Virus genome (UHGV): UHGV-0007927
Strand: one strand, 5' to 3'
DNA length: 36,970 nucleotides
DNA from: a virus
Made by a program: the position numbers and the translations under genes. Below are positions 27,716 to 36,970 of the stretch, one piece after another. Position 1 is the stretch's first letter; each line of letters begins with the position of its first letter. Under the pieces are notes generated by a model. That model was not told the DNA's origin. It saw only the letters and a program-made list of their open reading frames with translations, and did not search any database.

Positions 27716-29101
27716 ATGGCTACGTGGCAACAGGGTATTAATTCTGGTGGGTTTCTTGCTGGCATCGGTGCGCAAAATGAGAATGCGCCAAAGGCAAGCG
27801 ACATTAACGCAACGCTTGGTCTGATCCGCGAAAACAATGAACTGGCTCGCTCAGGTGCAAATAACGTTGGTCTGACCGCGTTACGTGGTCTGGCTGGAGT
27901 TGCTGATATTTATAAGCAGGAACAGCAACAGAAAGCGATTAATGCGTTCAATAAGGTTCATGCTGATGCATGGGCTTCTGGTGATCCATCGGGACTATTT
28001 AAGTTTGCCAAGGAAAATCCAGCGTTTGTTGCGCAGGCACAACAGGCGTTTTCCGGTCTTAATGAGCAGCAACGCAACGATATGGGCGATTTAGCCATGA
28101 GGGCTAACGTCGCTCTTTCTCAGGGACCGGAAGCCTACAGTAAATTCATTACTGACAATAAGGACAGGTTAAATCGCGTGGGGGCGAATGCTGACTGGAT
28201 GATTCAGACAGGTATCCAGAATCCAGAGCAGCTATCACACATGCTGACTACTATGTCTCTCGGTGCGCTTGGACCAGAAAAGGCGTTTGCTGTTCAGGAC
28301 AAGATGGCTGGTCGTGAAATTGACAGAGGCAGGCTGGCAGAGACAATCCGCAGCAATCAGGCTGGCGAGGCGCTTCAGGCGAGAGGGCAAAACCTTTCCT
28401 ATCAGTCAGCAATGACTGGACACGGACTTGCAGCAGAAAGACTGGCACTTGATAAGCAGAAATTCGGTTTTGAAGTACAACAGGCACAAAAGAAGGCCGA
28501 TGAACTTATTAATGCTGCGCCAAAACTATCCGTGAACATGGAAAAGGCTATAGAAAAATCAGCAGGTGATGCGGCAGCTAGTCGTAATGCTGCCGATTCA
28601 ATGACAACGCTTGCTGACACGCTTGAGAAGGAGAAGCCAACTCCTGGTTTGTTCGGTAACGCTGAAAATATGTTCACTAAGCTTACGGGGCAAGATAACT
28701 ACCTCCGAGATATGCGGATTAGATTCAACCAACTAGCCAATGCGCAGGCAACCAAGCTTCTCCCCCCCGGCCCTGCATCAGATAAGGATATTGAGTTTGC
28801 AAGGAAAGGCATTCCAAGCGAAACGGATAATCCAATGGTCATGGCTCGATGGTTAAGGGGTATGGCAAAAATGGAAAGTAATAACGCGAAGTTCAACGAG
28901 TTTAGGTCAGAGTGGATGAGTGCAAATGGCAGCCCAGGACAATCTGATCGCAACCGAAACATCATGGGGATGGATGTTAAGAAGGGTGAATCATTGAACT
29001 CTGCGGCAAAACGTTTTCTTTCCTCAAGTTATGGCGATAGCCAACCTCAACAGCAATTGTCCGATGACGAATTAATTAGCAAATATCTCGGAGGGCAGTA
29101 A
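27716..29101 (+). CDS. ejection protein, gp20-like
   Basis: 461 aa; synteny; helical Ala/Gln-rich composition. Confidence 0.65.
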
Positions 29102-31221
29102 TGGCCTATAGTCGTGAACAGTTGATGACGGCGTTAAGGAATGCTGATGCTGCCGGCGATACTGAGGGAGCACGTCGCATTGCTCAGATGCTGTCTTCTG
29201 GTGATCAATCCACTCAAAACCAATCGCAGCCAGAAGAACAATCTCTGGTGGGAAAAGCTACTGACTGGCTCACTGGTGGTCAAAGTGCAGGGCAAATTGC
29301 AGAACAGGCTGGTCGTGGTCTGGTAAACATACCATTTGACGTATTGCAGGGTGGCGCAAGTCTGATTAATGCAATCAGCCAGGGGCTTGGTGGCCCAAAG
29401 GTTTTGGATGATGTCTATCGTCCAGTCGATCGACCGACAGACCCTTATGCGCAAGCCGGTGAAACAATTGGTGGGTATCTCCTGCCAATTGGCACAGCGG
29501 CAAAAGCTGCTGGAGCGCCAGCAAAGCTCGCTGGAGATATCGGTTCCGCAGGAAACATGATTGCAGGTTCTCTTGCTGATGCTGCAAATCAGGAGGGCGA
29601 CTTTGCACAAAATGCTGCCATTAACGGTGGTATCAATATTGGTGCTCAGGGGATACTTTCTGGGGCTGGAAGGATCTTAACCTCTAAATCACCTCAAGTT
29701 CTTGGTGGCGGGGCAATAAATTCCGCTGCTGATGTTTCGAAAATGGCAAAGTCTGGTACAGGAAGAGAGATTATTGCCAGACAGTCAGCTAATGTGTCAG
29801 ACGAAATAGCAAAAGCAGCAGATACTGCTGGAATAGATATCAACGCATTAACTCCTGGCATGAGATCAGGTAGTCGTGGTCTTGCTCAGGCGGAGGGGAT
29901 TCTGGCGTCAAAGCCCGGAATTACACAGGATGCACACACCAAAGCATTCAGTGAAATAGAGTCGAAATTTAACTCAGCATTGGATGAGTTTGGGGCTGAA
30001 GCAGGAACTGCATCAGAAAAAAGTGCAGCCATAAAACAAAGGGTTTTGGCAAGTATTGATAAAATGAAAAATTCAGAAAAGGCTGCATGGGATAGCGTCC
30101 GCTCCACGATGCCTGACGCAAAGGCCAGAATGTCAAACCTGAATGCTACAATTCAGGGTGATATTTTGGCTGGCATGCCGCTAACTCCTGAGATGAAACA
30201 ATTCGCATCTGCTTATGCTAAAACTGGTAAAAAAGGAATCACGTTTGATGCCATGAAGGCATGGCGAAGTAAACTTGCTGACGCAGAGCAGAAGTATATA
30301 AGGTCTGGTGAGGCAAATACGGCAAGGCGCATGGCTGAGCTTCGTGATGCAGCAACGGAAGATATGCGCATAATGGCTCAAAATGGCGGTTTTCTTGATG
30401 ACTGGCAAAAAGCTAATGATCTGTCAAAGGCAAGATTTACAGCACAAGAACAGGCTGAAGCAGCGTTTGGTAGAGACCTTGCAACTGATCAGTTGGTAAC
30501 TAATGGATCTAAGGCGTTACAGGGTTCAGCAAAAAGTGGAACAGGTCAGTTCCATAAAATAATAAGCGCCCTACCTGAGTCGGAACGCGCGCCAGCAATT
30601 GCATCAATATTACAAGATGCAATGTCGCAAGGGGTACGCGGAGGTAAGTCTGAAGAGGCTGGAATTAAGCATATCGCGACTATTCTTACCCCACAAAACG
30701 TGAAGGCAATTAGTCGATATTCTCCAGAACTTGGCAGGATTACAAGTTCATACGGAGAACTTGCACGAGCAGCAACAAAGCCACTTCGATATGTTGAACA
30801 GACAGGGCGATCTATGCCAGCCATTAGCACTCTTGAGAATGGCCTTCATCCAGTTTTAGAGAGCGCATTGTCTGGCGCTTTTAGAACTATTGGCACTATC
30901 GCAGGGTTCTCTGGAGGAGGCGTTATTGGAGCAATAGCGGGTGGCGCTGCAGGTGGGGCAATTGATGCAATGGCAAAAGGAGCGATAGCGAAATTATCCG
31001 CAACCAGAAGCGGTCGTTACGCTATTGAAAAGGCTGTTCAAGAGGCAACAAAGGCAGTTAAGGTTGGGGCAAGTGATGGTGCATTAGCGGCGGCGGAACG
31101 CAGATTTATGGCAAATAAGGCCGCCGTAAAAGCAATACGCGAGGCACTAGGAAACGAAGAGTTCCAGCGTTTAGCAAGAGCTGGAATTGTGGCATCGCTA
31201 AGCGGAATGGCACAGGAGTAA
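29101..31221 (+). CDS. ejection / DNA-transfer protein, gp16-like
   Basis: 706 aa; last of three consecutive ejection-protein genes; Gly/Ala-rich segment near the C-terminus ([31 protein letters not shown]). Confidence 0.65.
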
Positions 31222-31611: not shown

Positions 31612-32253
31612 TCAAAGCAACGGGATTTCAAGGTAAACTGCGGTTGCCAAAATACTAACATCTTCATTTCTAACAAGAATATTAGGATACATTGGGTTTA
31701 GGGATACTAAGTTTGTCTCTATTTCACCAATGTAAACCTGCTTGAAGCTCAATATTTGCTCTTTATCCAATGATGCTATTACATAATCTTTGCTTTTAGC
31801 TTTTACTAGAGGGCTGAACGTGACAACTGATCCTCTGGGAAAGCTAATACCTGAACTTGTAGTCATAGCTTCACCTTCAATAGTCAATGCAAATGCAGAG
31901 TCACCAACATTGTATATTGCCGGATGAAATCTAGACGATGAATGTTCACCTGTGTTTAGGTAATGCATAACTTCATCTAGTTTGAGGATTGGTATTTGCT
32001 TTACCAGAACGTCAGGCATGACGTTTTTTGTTCCAGGCCCCTGACCTTCACCCAGAGCTAACCACTCAGCCGTAGTGCCTAATGCGTTGGCTAATGCCTG
32101 CAATACACGAAGCCGTGGTTTAGCCTCACCACCCTCGTATGCAGCTATTTGACGTTGAACAACACCAGCTAATTTTGACAACTGCGCCTGCGTCATACCC
32201 CTAGACTGTCTTGCCAGAGATACTCTTGATGGGAATTGATCGTCAAAATTCAT
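31612..32253 (-). CDS. repressor-like protein: N-terminal HTH (XRE type) plus C-terminal S24 LexA/CI-like domain with Ser-to-Ala at the catalytic position
   Basis: 213 aa; HTH MTQAQLSKLAGVVQRQIAAYEGGEAKP; C-domain aligns with lambda CI (AFALTIEGEAMTT vs [14 protein letters not shown]), so the nucleophile Ser is Ala; Lys retained (SFKQV vs FKKL). Confidence 0.75.
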   Translation of the reverse strand: MNFDDQFPSRVSLARQSRGMTQAQLSKLAGVVQRQIAAYEGGEAKPRLRVLQALANALGTTAEWLALGEGQGPGTKNVMPDVLVKQIPILKLDEVMHYLNTGEHSSSRFHPAIYNVGDSAFALTIEGEAMTTSSGISFPRGSVVTFSPLVKAKSKDYVIASLDKEQILSFKQVYIGEIETNLVSLNPMYPNILVRNEDVSILATAVYLEIPLL

Positions 32254-32352: not shown

Positions 32353-32526
32353 ATGACTGAAAAGATATCTTCCATCAAGCCGCGTCAGGTTCGTTTTACA
32401 GAAAAGGTTGATTCACATATCCGCGAATCAGCAAAAAGATGCCATAGGTCAATTCAGGCAGAGATAGCTTATCGAATGGAGTTATTGATGAAACTTGAGG
32501 CAAAGGGCGATGTTGTCATCCAATAA
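32353..32526 (+). CDS. ribbon-helix-helix (Arc/Mnt-type) regulator, 57 aa, below the ORF-track cutoff
   Basis: ATG 6 nt after CAGGAG; MTEKISSIKPRQVRFTEKVDSHIRESAKRCHRSIQAEIAYRMELLMKLEAKGDVVIQ, with a beta-strand then two helices; divergent from the repressor-like gene, upstream of the antirepressor. Confidence 0.5.
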   Translation: MTEKISSIKPRQVRFTEKVDSHIRESAKRCHRSIQAEIAYRMELLMKLEAKGDVVIQ

Positions 32527-32599
32527 AAATAGTGAAGCCCGGCAGTGCGCGAACACAAACCGGGCCTCTATGTCAGTAACCGTATGCAAGGAAACTAAC

Positions 32600-33226
32600 A
32601 TGAATATTGTAGCAAAATCAGATTACAACTTCCACGGAGTTGAGTTGGTGCCCACCCGTGATATGCATGGTGTTTGGTTTACATCATCTAATATTGCATC
32701 TGCACTTAAATATGCAAATAGCCGTGCAGTAACAATGATTTATAACAAGTATAGCGATGAGTTTAGCGCCGGAATGACTCAGGTACTCGAAGTGAGTACC
32801 TCAGGAAATTATCGCAAAAAAGTGCGAGTTTTCTCACTACGCGGTGCCCACCTAATCGCGATGTTTGCTCGCACTCCGGTAGCCAAAGAGTTCCGCCGCT
32901 GGGTGCTGGATATTTTGGATCGGCAGGCAGAATGCTCACCGATTGCAAAACAGTTTACTGACGAAGAACTGGTTAATCTCTGCTACTTACAATTGTGGAT
33001 GGAGAAGAGTCAACAAATGTGCAAACACATCTACCCAGGAATGAAGCAAATTGGTTCTGAGCTTTCAGGAAGAATTTACGATATTGCATATGAGACTCGC
33101 TATATGTCAGAAGAAACCAAGAAATCACTTCTTCGTGAAATGAAGAATCTTGATACCAACAATTTTGTCGTAAAGAACGCTCAGCCAATGCTGACAAAAC
33201 TGCGCGGCGAGGAATGGATTCATTGA
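32600..33226 (+). CDS. antirepressor-like protein with BRO-N/KilA-N-type N-terminal domain
   Basis: ORF 32495..33226; the ATG at 32600 (AAGGAAA RBS) gives MNIVAKSDYNFHGVELVPTRDMHGVWFTSSNIASALKYANSRAV...KEFRRWVLDIL; the family call is by pattern only. Confidence 0.55.
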   Translation: MNIVAKSDYNFHGVELVPTRDMHGVWFTSSNIASALKYANSRAVTMIYNKYSDEFSAGMTQVLEVSTSGNYRKKVRVFSLRGAHLIAMFARTPVAKEFRRWVLDILDRQAECSPIAKQFTDEELVNLCYLQLWMEKSQQMCKHIYPGMKQIGSELSGRIYDIAYETRYMSEETKKSLLREMKNLDTNNFVVKNAQPMLTKLRGEEWIH

Positions 33227-33314
33227 TTGGTGCGCCGGACGGCGCAAAAAGAAAACCGCCAGTGTGCTGCTGGCGGCCTATGTCACACCCTTACTACCAC
33301 ATAAGGAATGCCTA

Positions 33315-34043
33315 ATGACTTTGAAGAATGTAGCAAACATCGGATCCGTTGTCACGGATAAAACCATTGACAGCCAGCGCCTTCTTGAGATGGTAAATCA
33401 GGCTCGTAGACAGTGCGGTGAGCCGGAGGTTCGTAATAACAAATTCATCGAGAAAATTGAAGATGAATTGGATGGAGAGCACTACACAAAAAGTGTAGTG
33501 CAAAAAGCGAACAAAACTTCGATGGTTATCATTGAGATGTCAATCAAGCAAGCATTGCGAGTTGCCGCTCGCGAGTCAAAAGCCGTTCGCCGCTCACTGG
33601 TAGACCAACTTGAAAGTATGCAAGAAGCGCACATTAAAAGCGGTAAATCAGCGAGTGGACTTGTTGAGTATCGTCAAGCGCGAACATTGAAAATGACGGT
33701 TGAAGCTGTTACCAATCTGTTCGATCTGATGCCAAATCTTGCGCCTGAGGCAAAGCAGACAGCGGCAGCAAGTATAATCAACCCGCTCGTTGGTTTTAAT
33801 GCAATACCTCTTCCGGCAATAGAAGAGCATTACTACTCAGCAGGGGAGGTTGCAGAGCAGCTTGGAGTAACGGCCAACAAGATTGGTCGCATTGCTAACG
33901 CAAACAACCTCAAAACTGAGCAGTACGGGAAGTTCTTCCTGGATAAATCGGCGCATTCCAGCAAACAGGTAGAGGCGTTCCGTTACAATTCTGAAGGCGT
34001 TAAAGCACTACAACACCTACTACATGGCTCAAATGTGGCGTAA
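33315..34043 (+). CDS. second antirepressor-like / phage regulatory protein (ORF6N plus KilA-C-like architecture, tentative)
   Basis: The ATG at 33315 with AAGGAA RBS gives 243 aa; C-terminal ...YYSAGEVAEQLGVTANKIGRIANANNLKTEQYGKFF... resembles antirepressor C-terminal DNA-binding modules. Confidence 0.4.
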   Translation: MTLKNVANIGSVVTDKTIDSQRLLEMVNQARRQCGEPEVRNNKFIEKIEDELDGEHYTKSVVQKANKTSMVIIEMSIKQALRVAARESKAVRRSLVDQLESMQEAHIKSGKSASGLVEYRQARTLKMTVEAVTNLFDLMPNLAPEAKQTAAASIINPLVGFNAIPLPAIEEHYYSAGEVAEQLGVTANKIGRIANANNLKTEQYGKFFLDKSAHSSKQVEAFRYNSEGVKALQHLLHGSNVA

Positions 34044-34061
34044 CATTTTATAATGAAAACT

Positions 34062-34086
34062 AAACCCGCTTAATCGCGGGTTTTTT
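34062..34086. terminator. bidirectional intrinsic terminator between the antirepressor-like gene and the Mnt-like gene
   Basis: AAACCCGC-ttaat-GCGGGTTTTTT: hairpin flanked by an A-run and a T-run, so functional on both strands; the Mnt-like stop codon lies in the loop. Confidence 0.6.
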
Positions 34087-34326
34087 CTTTCCTTAGAATT
34101 TCAGCCGCAACTTCTTTTACTCGTTCCGAGATTAATGAGGCCAGCCTCTCTTCTTCATCACGATACCCGCTTACAGGTGATGGTTTGGAGAGTGATTCTT
34201 CCATCGTAGCCACAATTTCGGAATTGATAGACCTGTTATTCATTTTTGCACGCTGCTTAATCTTAGCGTGCAACTCGTGTGTAAGCCTCAAGTGAAACTG
34301 CGCCTCGTCGTATTTGCTGTACATCA
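34070..34326 (-). CDS. mnt: Mnt-like ribbon-helix-helix repressor
   Basis: ATGATG start after AGGTGAGG; ...FHLRLTHELHAKIKQRAKMNNRSINSEIVATMEESLSKPSPVSGYRDEEERLA..., closely parallel to P22 Mnt (...NGRSMNSELLQIVQDALSKPSPVTGYRNDAERLA...) but with a different beta-strand. Confidence 0.7.
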
Positions 34327-34738
34327 TCAATGCCTCACCTAATGGGTGGAATGGCATCGTAAAACCTACTGTACAAATCAACAATCGTACCGTTTCGGTA
34401 TGTAACAAACGCCAACCGTAGCCATGCTGCGGCGATTCCTTGTATCTGGAGCAAATTAAATGACAGATATTATAAATAGGAATTTTTATTTAATAATATT
34501 TGAAAATTAAAATCATGGACGATAGGAATAAAAGTAGTACTTGTCATTTTTAAGTGACGCATTAAACGCATAAAGCATATGTCTGTTGATCAAGATTCTT
34601 ACTTGTTGTAAAATAATTGTCCTGTTCATGTTGCATGGTTTTAAAATGAATAGAAGATTATTTTTCAAAACAATTGCATCTTTGTCTGCAGTCATTCCGT
34701 TTTCTTCAATATCTAAATTTTCAAACAGGATGACTAAT

Positions 34739-36970
34739 ATGCCTGATATAACTCCAAATGTTGTAATTGGGATGCCTTCGCAACTCTTCACTATGGCTCG
34801 CTCTTTTAAAGCGGTAGCCAATGGCAAAATTTATATAGGAAAAATTGACACTGACCCGGTAAATCCTGAAAACCAAATTCAGGTTTATGTAGAGAACGAA
34901 GACGGTTCTCACGTTCCTGTTTCGCAACCAATCATCATTAACGCTGCTGGTTATCCGGTATATAACGGACAGATTGCCAAATTCGTAACCGTGCAAGGCC
35001 ATTCAATGGCTGTTTATGATGCATACGGTGCGCAGCAGTTCTATTTTCCTAATGTGCTGAAGTATGACCCTGATCAGTTTAGAACAATAATAGAGTCAAA
35101 TTATGGTGCGGGGCATGTTGGTACTTCGTCTGGACTAACAATTCAGCAGTTGATTGATTCTTTTATTGTAGTTACACCACAAATGTTTGGTGAATCTGGA
35201 AAGTCAAATGATTCAACAATAGCAATTAACTCTGCATTGGACTATCTTGAGTCTCTAGGTGGTGGGATTATTTATCTTCCTCCAGGTAAATATTACGTCA
35301 GCATTGAAAAATCAGGTCATAATTATTCATGCATTAGAGTTCCCGCTAACGTAACTTTCTGTGGGGCTGGTGCTGGATCTACCATCATTCAGAGACTACC
35401 CACTGAGAGGGGGATGGATGGTGTCTTGATAACAAATAAATATTATGATACTAGAACTGGCTATGGAGCTGCCGGCAATATTGTTTTTAGAGATTTTACA
35501 ATCACTGACGGTAGCGCAACCCCAACAAGGGATTATGGTGATTTAATCGGTTTAGGTCATAGCAAAAATGTAACTATAGAGAGAGTGGAGCAAGGGAGAC
35601 ATGATCAACATTTTGTTGATATTGCAGGATCAACCGATGTAACAGTCAAAGACTGTCACGGGTCGTGTGATATGGAGGTGGACCATATTACGTGGAATTG
35701 TGATATACAGATTGATTCCGCTCAACCAAACGCAATACTTGGAATTAAAGTTGATGGCACACCTAGCACAAATATAATTATTAGCGGAAATAAACTTCAA
35801 AACAAAAGCTCAAATTTGCAAATTGAAATAGGACATGCTGGGGGAGTATATAGAAATATTATTATTTCTGATAACATACTTGATGGGGCATATTTTCAAG
35901 ACTCATCAGTTATTGGTTGTAACTCAACAACAGCTACCATTATCAATTTGAGCATAAATAACAATCAAATACTAACAAATAATATAAATTCAAGAGGTGT
36001 TAATCTTTATTGTCTTGGGAATAACGAAAAACTTATTGGTATTTCTTTTAGTAATAATATTATAAGAGGTTATGCTAGGATTGGTGCATGGTTTGGGACT
36101 AATGGTAATTATACTGGAACGAAGTTTCCTCATGATGATGTAACAATAATAGGAAATAAATTCTTTCTAACATCGCCTTCATCTGGAACATTTGTTCAAG
36201 GTGTTGTTGTTGCTGGTTGGCGATCTGTTGTATGTAGTGATAATATAGTTGAGATATATTCTGATAATGAATTTTCTTCAGGGTGTTCGGTGATATCAGT
36301 TTGGAAAAATGGTAGTGCTAAGGTAAGTGATAACAATATCTCTAGAACATGTGGTGCAACACCTGACGTATCATCTTCAGTTATTTCGTTGATACTAATC
36401 ACCCCTGAACCTTCCAGCATTGATAAGGCGTCATCAATCCATATTAATGGAAATGCTTTCTTTGGAGATATTCCTAGATATGCAATAAATCACAAAGAAG
36501 GGTGGATTGAAGGATATGACATGATAGTTGTATCAGGCTCTCATGGTAGATTTAACCAAACATTTATAGGCACGCAAGGGGCGCATATGTATGAAACGTA
36601 CCCAATTTCTGATATGACAAATTTCAATCAACCAGTGTCAATAAATGGTCAATATAGAAGGCAGGTATACAGAGGAAATATTTACAAGTCAACGTTCAAT
36701 TTGAAGAAAAATGGAAGTGAAACAAGTGGGGCTAAGGTGGATTTTTTTATATCTAATGAACGCTCAAAAATAACAGGTTCTGAACAATTGAATGTAGCAT
36801 ATATATCTCCAACTGAGTCTGTGGGAATCACCGCTACATCAATAGATTTGTCATCAGGAACACTTAATATAATTACTGGAACAAATGGTGTATCTATGAA
36901 TTTAAATCCATCCAATAAGCAGCCTGAAATAAGAAATAGCGCGTATATAAGCGCAAGGATTTCCATTTAA
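34739..36970 (+). CDS. 9: tailspike: P22-type N-terminal head-binding domain fused to a divergent parallel beta-helix receptor-binding domain
   Basis: ORF-track start 34586 is upstream; the ATG at 34739 (AGGA RBS) gives [59 protein letters not shown]..., matching the P22 gp9 N-terminus. From about residue 120 the sequence is unrelated, AT-rich and full of N-x-I/L beta-helix-like repeats. Confidence 0.8.

Follow-up and report, generated by a model that had tools for sequence, protein, structure and literature searches.

A P22-like tailspike gene that joins an HK620/Sf6-type head-binding domain to an unrelated, AT-rich beta-helix receptor module, provisionally assigned to Escherichia coli O82

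The UHGV virus genome UHGV-0007927 was analysed as one stretch of 36,970 nucleotides (nt), hereafter the window, whose last gene is an open reading frame (ORF) on the + strand at 34739-36970. The ORF runs for 743 codons, intact and without interruption, and encodes a tailspike protein that is almost certainly a two-module mosaic of the modular P22-like kind. Its 2,232-nt coding sequence (CDS) is found at 98.2-99.5% identity in seven RefSeq E. coli genomes as 'phage tailspike protein'. The gene is therefore already generically annotated in RefSeq, and what is uncharacterised is its receptor module. The gene and its start region comprise the following features:

34727..34730, + strand, Shine-Dalgarno-like AGGA, 8 nt 5′ of the ATG at 34739 (direct sequence read)
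34739..36970, + strand, complete tailspike CDS, 743 amino acids (aa) plus stop, the stop being the final triplet of the window (ORF read)
34739..35077, + strand, head-binding or virion anchor domain, residues 1-113, with the YDPDQF motif at its end (Pfam PF09008, PDB matches, identity)
35078..35128, + strand, recombination junction zone, residues 114-130, HK620-like yet unlike Sf6 (protein and nucleotide comparison, BLAST ends)
35165..36553, + strand, predicted right-handed parallel beta-helix, receptor-binding and putatively catalytic, residues ~143-605, with a capping helix at residues 160-172
35600..35620, + strand, motif H288-D-Q-H-F-V-D294, candidate active-site rung with a putative catalytic role (alignments, HMMER)
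36554..36967, + strand, C-terminal all-beta (sandwich-like) domain, residues ~606-743, ending in ...QPxIR(T/N)S.YI.A..SI (model, conserved motif)

The initial annotation, made from the sequence, had described the first ~115 residues as close to P22 gp9. This holds as far as the domain family is concerned: residues 1-113 match the Pfam Head_binding domain PF09008 over its full length (E-value 1.1e-65, profile positions 1-113 of 113), they end in the YDPDQ(F/Y) motif of P22-like tailspikes, and their PDB matches are Sf6 gp14 (7sg7) and P22 gp9. The closest relatives, however, are others. The anchor is identical to HK620 gp9 at 107/113 positions (95%) and to Sf6 gp14 at 107/114 (94%), but to P22 gp9 at only 82/114 (72%), and it is therefore of the HK620/Sf6 type and not strictly of the P22 type.

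In sequence searches, matches to known tailspikes stopped at the junction. Every PDB tailspike match ends at query residue 116-121, and the phmmer matches to 2xc1, 8tvr and 5gai cover residues 1-117 only, in agreement with the initial view that the remainder is unrelated to the P22 endorhamnosidase. At the nucleotide level, only nt 1 to ~340-383 of the CDS are matched in all 29 phage records and in about 1,120 of the 5,426 complete E. coli genomes; the BLAST matches, counted over 1,131 E. coli records and the 29 phage records, end at nt 338-383. In a MAFFT alignment with HK620 and Sf6, identity reaches 90-100% in an island that begins at about nt 10-30 and ends at nt 360, and it is 25-50% both 5′ of the ATG and 3′ of nt ~390; across nt 330-420 the identity steps down from 83% to 56% and then to 40%. 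The Sf6 protein diverges straight after YDPDQF (residue 113), while similarity to the HK620 protein persists via R(T/A)IIES..GAGHVG as far as residue ~129. Uniform similarity to a single known tailspike, which would speak against a chimeric gene, was not seen.

The receptor part is also markedly AT-rich, as had been noted. Its GC content is 36.0%, and 24.1% at third codon positions (GC3), compared with 42.5% and 38.1% in the head-binding part and 47.5% in the rest of the window, where the lowest other segment of 1,878 nt has 40.9%. The receptor modules of HK620 and Sf6 have 45.6% and 44.2% GC, respectively. A compositional breakpoint had been expected at residue 115-125, and GC3 indeed drops at the junction. 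Raw GC fails to place it, since the single-breakpoint fit puts the change at 34452, inside the AT-rich intergenic region; the junction is sharply marked by the GC3 drop and, chiefly, by the drop in sequence identity.

The two parts of the gene also travel separately. The upstream backbone of the window and the anchor recur in other genomes with different receptor modules (for example in MS10495, at 97.7%), and there the matches end at tailspike nt ~333-357. The receptor module itself was found in seven of the 5,426 complete E. coli genomes. We compared the window with five carriers, MSHS 472 (L001), OHT76-1 (L002), L006, ET729 (L008) and L009. The receptor parts in this set differ at 1-15 positions per 1,893 nt (at least 99.2% identity) and the anchors at up to 26 positions per 339 nt (7.7%). 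The module is thus more conserved than the anchor, the reverse of the usual conserved anchor and variable tip. Because the module is so much more conserved than the anchors, we read this as recent spread of a cassette among diverged P22-like anchors. With the same anchor joined to other modules and the same module joined to other anchors, cassette exchange is proven, and the horizontal swapping of receptor specificity first proposed from the sequence stands. The full combination of backbone, anchor and receptor module seen in the window occurred in no complete genome examined.

At least four contexts of the module can be told apart. One is a prophage or prophage remnant with IntS at argW (MSHS 472, OHT76-1 and ET729), another a degraded prophage between sbcB and dacD (VE-T2), and a third an intact-looking prophage at a third site, where the tailspike gene lies directly 3′ of gp16 (GDSC2BY4G, whose upstream flank is unrelated). 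The fourth is the window, in which the module follows an immI-like block. In ET729 (L008, locus 1-42232) two P22-like prophages are apparently arranged in tandem at argW: holin, lysis, Gp49 and DUF2560 genes are repeated on both sides of intS, and several genes are annotated as frameshifted or partial.

The receptor part was modelled as a monomer with AlphaFold2 from a 39-sequence alignment, with a mean predicted local distance difference test score (pLDDT) of 90.6 and a predicted template modelling score of 0.89. This model replaced an earlier one built from nine sequences (pLDDT 66), in which the anchor and the C-terminal domain were unresolved. The prediction shows a right-handed parallel beta-helix and, C-terminal to it, a beta domain; a parallel beta-helix had been anticipated in the initial annotation, and the C-terminal strands (498-625 of the modelled fragment, model m328791523be7) reach a pLDDT of ~90. 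The structural neighbours are the AlgE4 A-module (score 32.8; root-mean-square deviation 2.1 Å over 341 aa), an alginate epimerase/lyase (32.2), the PfbA adhesin (32.2), the RbmB lyase (29.8) and the HK620 tailspike (28.2), with which Foldseek was concordant; no solved relative of the module is closer than 21% identity. The Asn-rich repeats noticed at the outset correspond to a rung motif, hxhxxNxh, which occurs on seven rungs at a spacing of 28-33 residues between residues 346 and 567; the eight matches in total compare with 0.69 expected in shuffled sequences (shuffle maximum 5). In the C-terminal domain R732 is invariant and the terminal motif is conserved in distant homologs, and this domain may have a role in trimer assembly or stability. 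Since the anchor is near-identical to that of Sf6 gp14 in 7sg7/7ukj, the protein presumably forms a homotrimer that is attached through its anchor to the tail hub in six copies.

The receptor module is rare, with nine clusters among 5.8 billion, and 35 family representatives were found at E < 1e-30 among 1.84 billion protein clusters. Searching 50,697 phage records with the receptor-part DNA gave no match, and tblastn against the same records retrieved Vibrio phage eugene 12A10, at 36% identity, and besides it only weak matches in Brevibacterium phages, so that by these searches no characterised phage carries the module. Its closest relative outside E. coli, P0002 (L013 689-2476; 69% identity), is N-terminally truncated, has no head-binding domain and adjoins an integrase on a metagenomic contig, with 39.7% GC as against 48.1% in its flanks. 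Among other homologs, P0004 comes after a GpJ-like gene in the tail module of a siphovirus and P0005 has an Mtd_N annotation. P0008 and P0009 (26-29% identity, 850-1,000 aa) have long extra N-terminal regions and hydrophobic, signal-peptide-like starts, for which reason the beta-helix family may also include secreted cellular proteins. Pectate_lyase_3 (PF12708) and Beta_helix (PF13229) did not match the window protein at E ≤ 0.1; precomputed matches exist for a fragment of 98% identity as well as for distant homologs.

Conservation within this family points to a candidate active site. The motif H288-D-Q-H-F-V-D294 is invariant in a nine-sequence alignment; with 39 sequences aligned, D294 stays invariant and H288, Q290, H291, D268, Q324 and D326 are conserved in at least 90% of the sequences. 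Together with H274 and D289 these residues make up a conserved polar cluster on successive rungs of the helix, and because of this arrangement we take the cluster as the putative catalytic site.

The genomes that carry the module provide clues to the receptor. In MSHS 472, which matches best among the carriers, the O-antigen cluster has O82-family wzx and wzy and also includes genes for a CDP-glycerol glycerophosphotransferase and a cytidylyltransferase and an AsnB-like gene; what we state about O82 chemistry is read from the gene content of this cluster only. The O82 wzx-wzy segment was present in seven of the 5,426 complete genomes, and four of these are tailspike carriers, where an overlap of 0.009 was expected (Fisher P = 3.4e-11). 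Intact-looking virion modules were seen in GDSC2BY4G and ET729, both of which are O82, while the O131 and O48 carriers have decayed remnants only. OHT76-1 is O131 and MSHS 472 is O82, although both have the same decayed argW prophage remnant, and their tailspike genes are 1 nt apart, which indicates a later O-antigen switch in OHT76-1. O-antigen replacement that followed lysogeny accounts best for the O131/O48 remnants. As anchor alleles, prophage backbones and integration sites differ among the O82 carriers, the module appears to have been acquired several times in O82 backgrounds.

As a positive control we used TSP2 of phage AV101, which was experimentally shown to act on O82 (PMC10791037). 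Full-length relatives of its receptor-module DNA occur in just two complete genomes, both of them O82: 18AR0366 and GDSC2BY4G. In Lederbergvirus, anchors are conserved and receptor modules track the O-serogroup, in a study that covers neither O82 nor the present module (PMC10408124). The GDSC2BY4G genome (NZ_CP136025.1) holds both kinds of module in separate prophages, an AV101-TSP2-like one at 1942901-1944283 (68.7% nucleotide identity) and the tailspike studied here at 3724403-3726634. Going by co-occurrence, the receptor is probably the E. coli O82 O-antigen, and the 'different host polysaccharide target' implied by the initial annotation may provisionally be given this name.

Several observations weigh against the O82 assignment or against cleavage of the receptor. 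Three of the seven carriers are O131 or O48, and three of the seven O82 genomes lack the tailspike gene. The Fisher P overstates the evidence because the carriers are related: MSHS 472 and OHT76-1 represent one remnant, VE-T2 and VE-T10 look like near-duplicates, and several carriers have common chromosomal flanks. By BLASTP, the beta-helix body has no detectable similarity to AV101 TSP2, so that the homology expected if both proteins target O82 was not found beyond the neck. As to cleavage, the Pfam scan of the window protein gave no match to a glycosidase or lyase family, the catalytic motif of AlgE is not conserved in the module, and PfbA, a top structural neighbour, is a non-enzymatic adhesin.

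These points have to be set against the alternatives. That the gene represents a single diverged lineage of uniform ancestry, whose N-terminus merely evolves more slowly, is practically excluded: nothing in its favour was found beyond the fold common to all beta-helix tailspikes, while the identity of 90-100% drops to background over ~60 nt at either edge of the anchor, one anchor with its flank carries other receptor modules, anchors as much as 7.7% divergent share a nearly identical module, and GC3 steps from 38% to 24%. The identity profile, the recombinants of anchor and module and the carrier comparison together refute it. A different matter is whether the same architecture serves another receptor, be it a capsule or K-antigen or O48, O131 or the like, with the O82 link as a by-product of clonality. 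The O131 and O48 carriers and the common flanks speak for this, as do the best structural neighbours, whose substrates are acidic exopolysaccharides (AlgE4, the alginate epimerase/lyase, RbmB, and K1 and K5 lyases), and CUS-3, whose backbone is 93% identical to that of the window and which has a capsule-specific spike. We nevertheless regard it as unlikely, if a serious contender, since the O82 carriers differ in prophage, site and anchor allele, as several independent acquisitions would produce, since the non-O82 copies lie in decayed remnants, one of them a single nucleotide from the copy of an O82 strain, and since, by the TSP2 control, tailspike modules of prophages do follow O82 among these genomes.

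Two further alternatives concern chemistry. In the manner of PfbA, the module might bind its polysaccharide without enzymatic activity and mediate reversible adsorption only. We consider this improbable, as the His/Asp/Gln cluster is invariant or at least 90% kept down to 26-30% identity, in phage and non-phage proteins alike, and resembles an active site; to our knowledge, moreover, the characterised P22-family tailspikes (P22, Sf6, HK620 and CUS-3) are all depolymerases. Alternatively, the module could be an AlgE-type epimerase or a beta-eliminative lyase acting on a polymer that contains uronic acid. Its similarity to AlgE4/AlgE6, the best match in both sequence and fold, is real (E 6e-8; profile E 2e-18), and an AlgE-like N-terminal cap and beta-helix fold are present, but the profile similarity is mostly confined to the cap (profile positions 158-231) and is not significant over the region of the catalytic loop. 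We take the AlgE4 catalytic set to be Tyr149, Asp152, His154 and Asp178, with the motif YG(F/I)DPH(D/E). HMMER aligned the AlgE loop YGFDPHE with H291-F-V-D294-I-A296, where only the Asp is retained (D294 for D152), Tyr149 being replaced by His and His154 by Ala. With the motif absent, membership of the AlgE family was rejected. The O82 cluster contains no uronic-acid pathway genes, a further point against this alternative, which we hold to be very unlikely. Enzymatic cleavage, and not binding alone, is thus what we think probable; given activity, a hydrolase and a lyase appear about equally plausible to us. Rather speculatively, the module could be a second means of attack on O82 that evolved independently, an AlgE-like beta-helix with an unusual His/Asp/Gln site whose chemistry or cleavage site would be unlike those of the Asp/Glu endoglycosidase tailspikes and of AV101 TSP2. 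One possibility would then be action at or near the substituent of glycerol or glycerate type, linked by a phosphodiester, to which the O82 cluster points.

Taken as a whole, the explanation that we favour, and hold to be probable, combines a P22-like tailspike, an acquired beta-helix module, O82 as the receptor and depolymerisation of this receptor. Residues 1-113 would dock the spike onto the tail machine, the beta-helix (residues ~143-605) would bind the host surface polysaccharide and probably cleave it, and residues ~606-743 would form the C-terminal beta domain. The receptor module would have been gained, as a mobile AT-rich cassette, by recombination just 3′ of the conserved YDPDQF/neck sequence. 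The His/Asp-rich site around H288-D294 might catalyse endoglycosidic depolymerisation of the O82 O-antigen, and by processively binding and cleaving O-antigen the virion could reach the outer membrane.

Among P22-like phages, swapping the receptor module while keeping a conserved anchor is a textbook route of host-range change, and for this reason the finding adds no new principle; the only new part of the mosaic is the receptor module. This is an uncharacterised but confidently modelled module with no solved structure, which now has a testable O82 assignment. It provides an example of cassette spread, being nearly identical behind diverged anchors. The prophage fossil shared by MSHS 472 and OHT76-1 would record an O-antigen switch (O82/O131) while keeping the old specificity. 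Two unrelated tailspike modules in O82 strains should be useful for typing, for engineering and for studies of convergent glycan recognition.

The start and the surroundings of the gene fit this picture of a P22-like tailspike. Of the possible starts, the ATG at 34739 is the best supported, as AGGA lies 8 nt 5′ of it, the resulting N-terminus is co-linear with Sf6 gp14 and P22 gp9, and the RefSeq CDS is the same. Alternative starts in the same frame are a TTG at 34586, which would in principle allow a longer ORF, and an ATG at 34730, which leaves no spacing to the AGGA motif. The intergenic stretch 5′ of the gene (34410-34738, ~330 nt) is strongly AT-rich, with 30-32% GC. MSHS 472 and OHT76-1 carry it at 100% identity, VE-T2 and ET729 at 94-98%, and it is unrelated to the upstream regions of HK620 and Sf6. 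A promoter scan returned no more sites than shuffled sequence did, and we therefore claim no tailspike-specific promoter. On the opposite strand, a 104-aa ORF at 34513-34827 appears to be spurious.

The window is best explained as the prophage of a temperate P22/HK620-like podovirus of the Lederbergvirus type. Its backbone is 93-96% identical to those of E212, JEP4, CUS-3 and HK620, and the tailspike gene comes last, after a gene for a gp16-like ejection protein and an immI-like block; in host genomes intS and tRNA-Arg lie immediately downstream of it. The neighbouring features upstream are:

29101-31221, gp16-like ejection gene
31612-32253, − strand, LexA/CI-like repressor gene with HTH_3 and Peptidase_S24 (Pfam)
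32495-33226, BRO-N/P22AR_C antirepressor gene of the immI-like block
33264-34043, antirepressor-region ORF of the immI-like block, with no Pfam match
34062..34083, no strand assigned, bidirectional terminator-like hairpin between ORF 33264-34043 and the Arc/Mnt-like gene (consensus scan only)
34070..34408, − strand, gene in the immI-like region for an Arc/Mnt-like repressor of the ribbon-helix-helix type, in divergent orientation to the tailspike gene (Pfam Arc PF03869, E 8e-15)

The position of the S24 repressor gene, between the gp16-like gene and the immI-like block, is unusual for a P22-like genome. An 'Arc family DNA-binding protein' is encoded 5′ of the tailspike gene also in MSHS 472, OHT76-1 and ET729.

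Compared with known systems, the window protein differs from the AlgE4 and AlgE6 A-modules (2pyg, 5lw3), in addition to lacking their conserved YG(F/I)DPH(D/E), in that it is part of a phage virion, has no R-modules and carries an anchor as well as an additional C-terminal domain; the AlgE substrate is polyuronate, which is unlikely for the window protein given the gene content of the O82 cluster. With the P22 gp9 endorhamnosidase (2xc1, 1lkt) it has in common the Pfam head-binding family, at 72% identity, and the modular principle, but the receptor and catalytic part is unrelated in sequence: matches end at residue 117, and no homology to P22 gp9 residues ~125-666 was found. HK620 gp9 (2vji) and Sf6 gp14 (7sg7/7ukj) are closest. 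Their anchors are 94-95% identical to that of the window (with similarity to HK620 going on to about residue 129), their genes occupy the same position at the end of the virion module by the integration region, and they have the same plan of anchor, neck, parallel beta-helix and C-terminal beta domain that is predicted here. AV101 TSP2 of Agtrevirus (WJJ54143.1) resembles the window protein in another respect, the predicted receptor, E. coli O82. Its specificity is experimental, whereas that of the window tailspike is deduced, and it is anchored in the branched complex of Ackermannviridae and not by a P22 head-binding domain. BLASTP aligned the two proteins only at the junction of neck and helix cap (24/70 identities, 34%), and they do not reach the identity of at least 30% across the receptor-binding domain that defines a common subtype (PMC10408124). 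In the complete-genome set, relatives of either module nonetheless occur only in O82 genomes or lineages, and since the two are unrelated beyond the neck, O82 strains host two independent families of tailspike modules.

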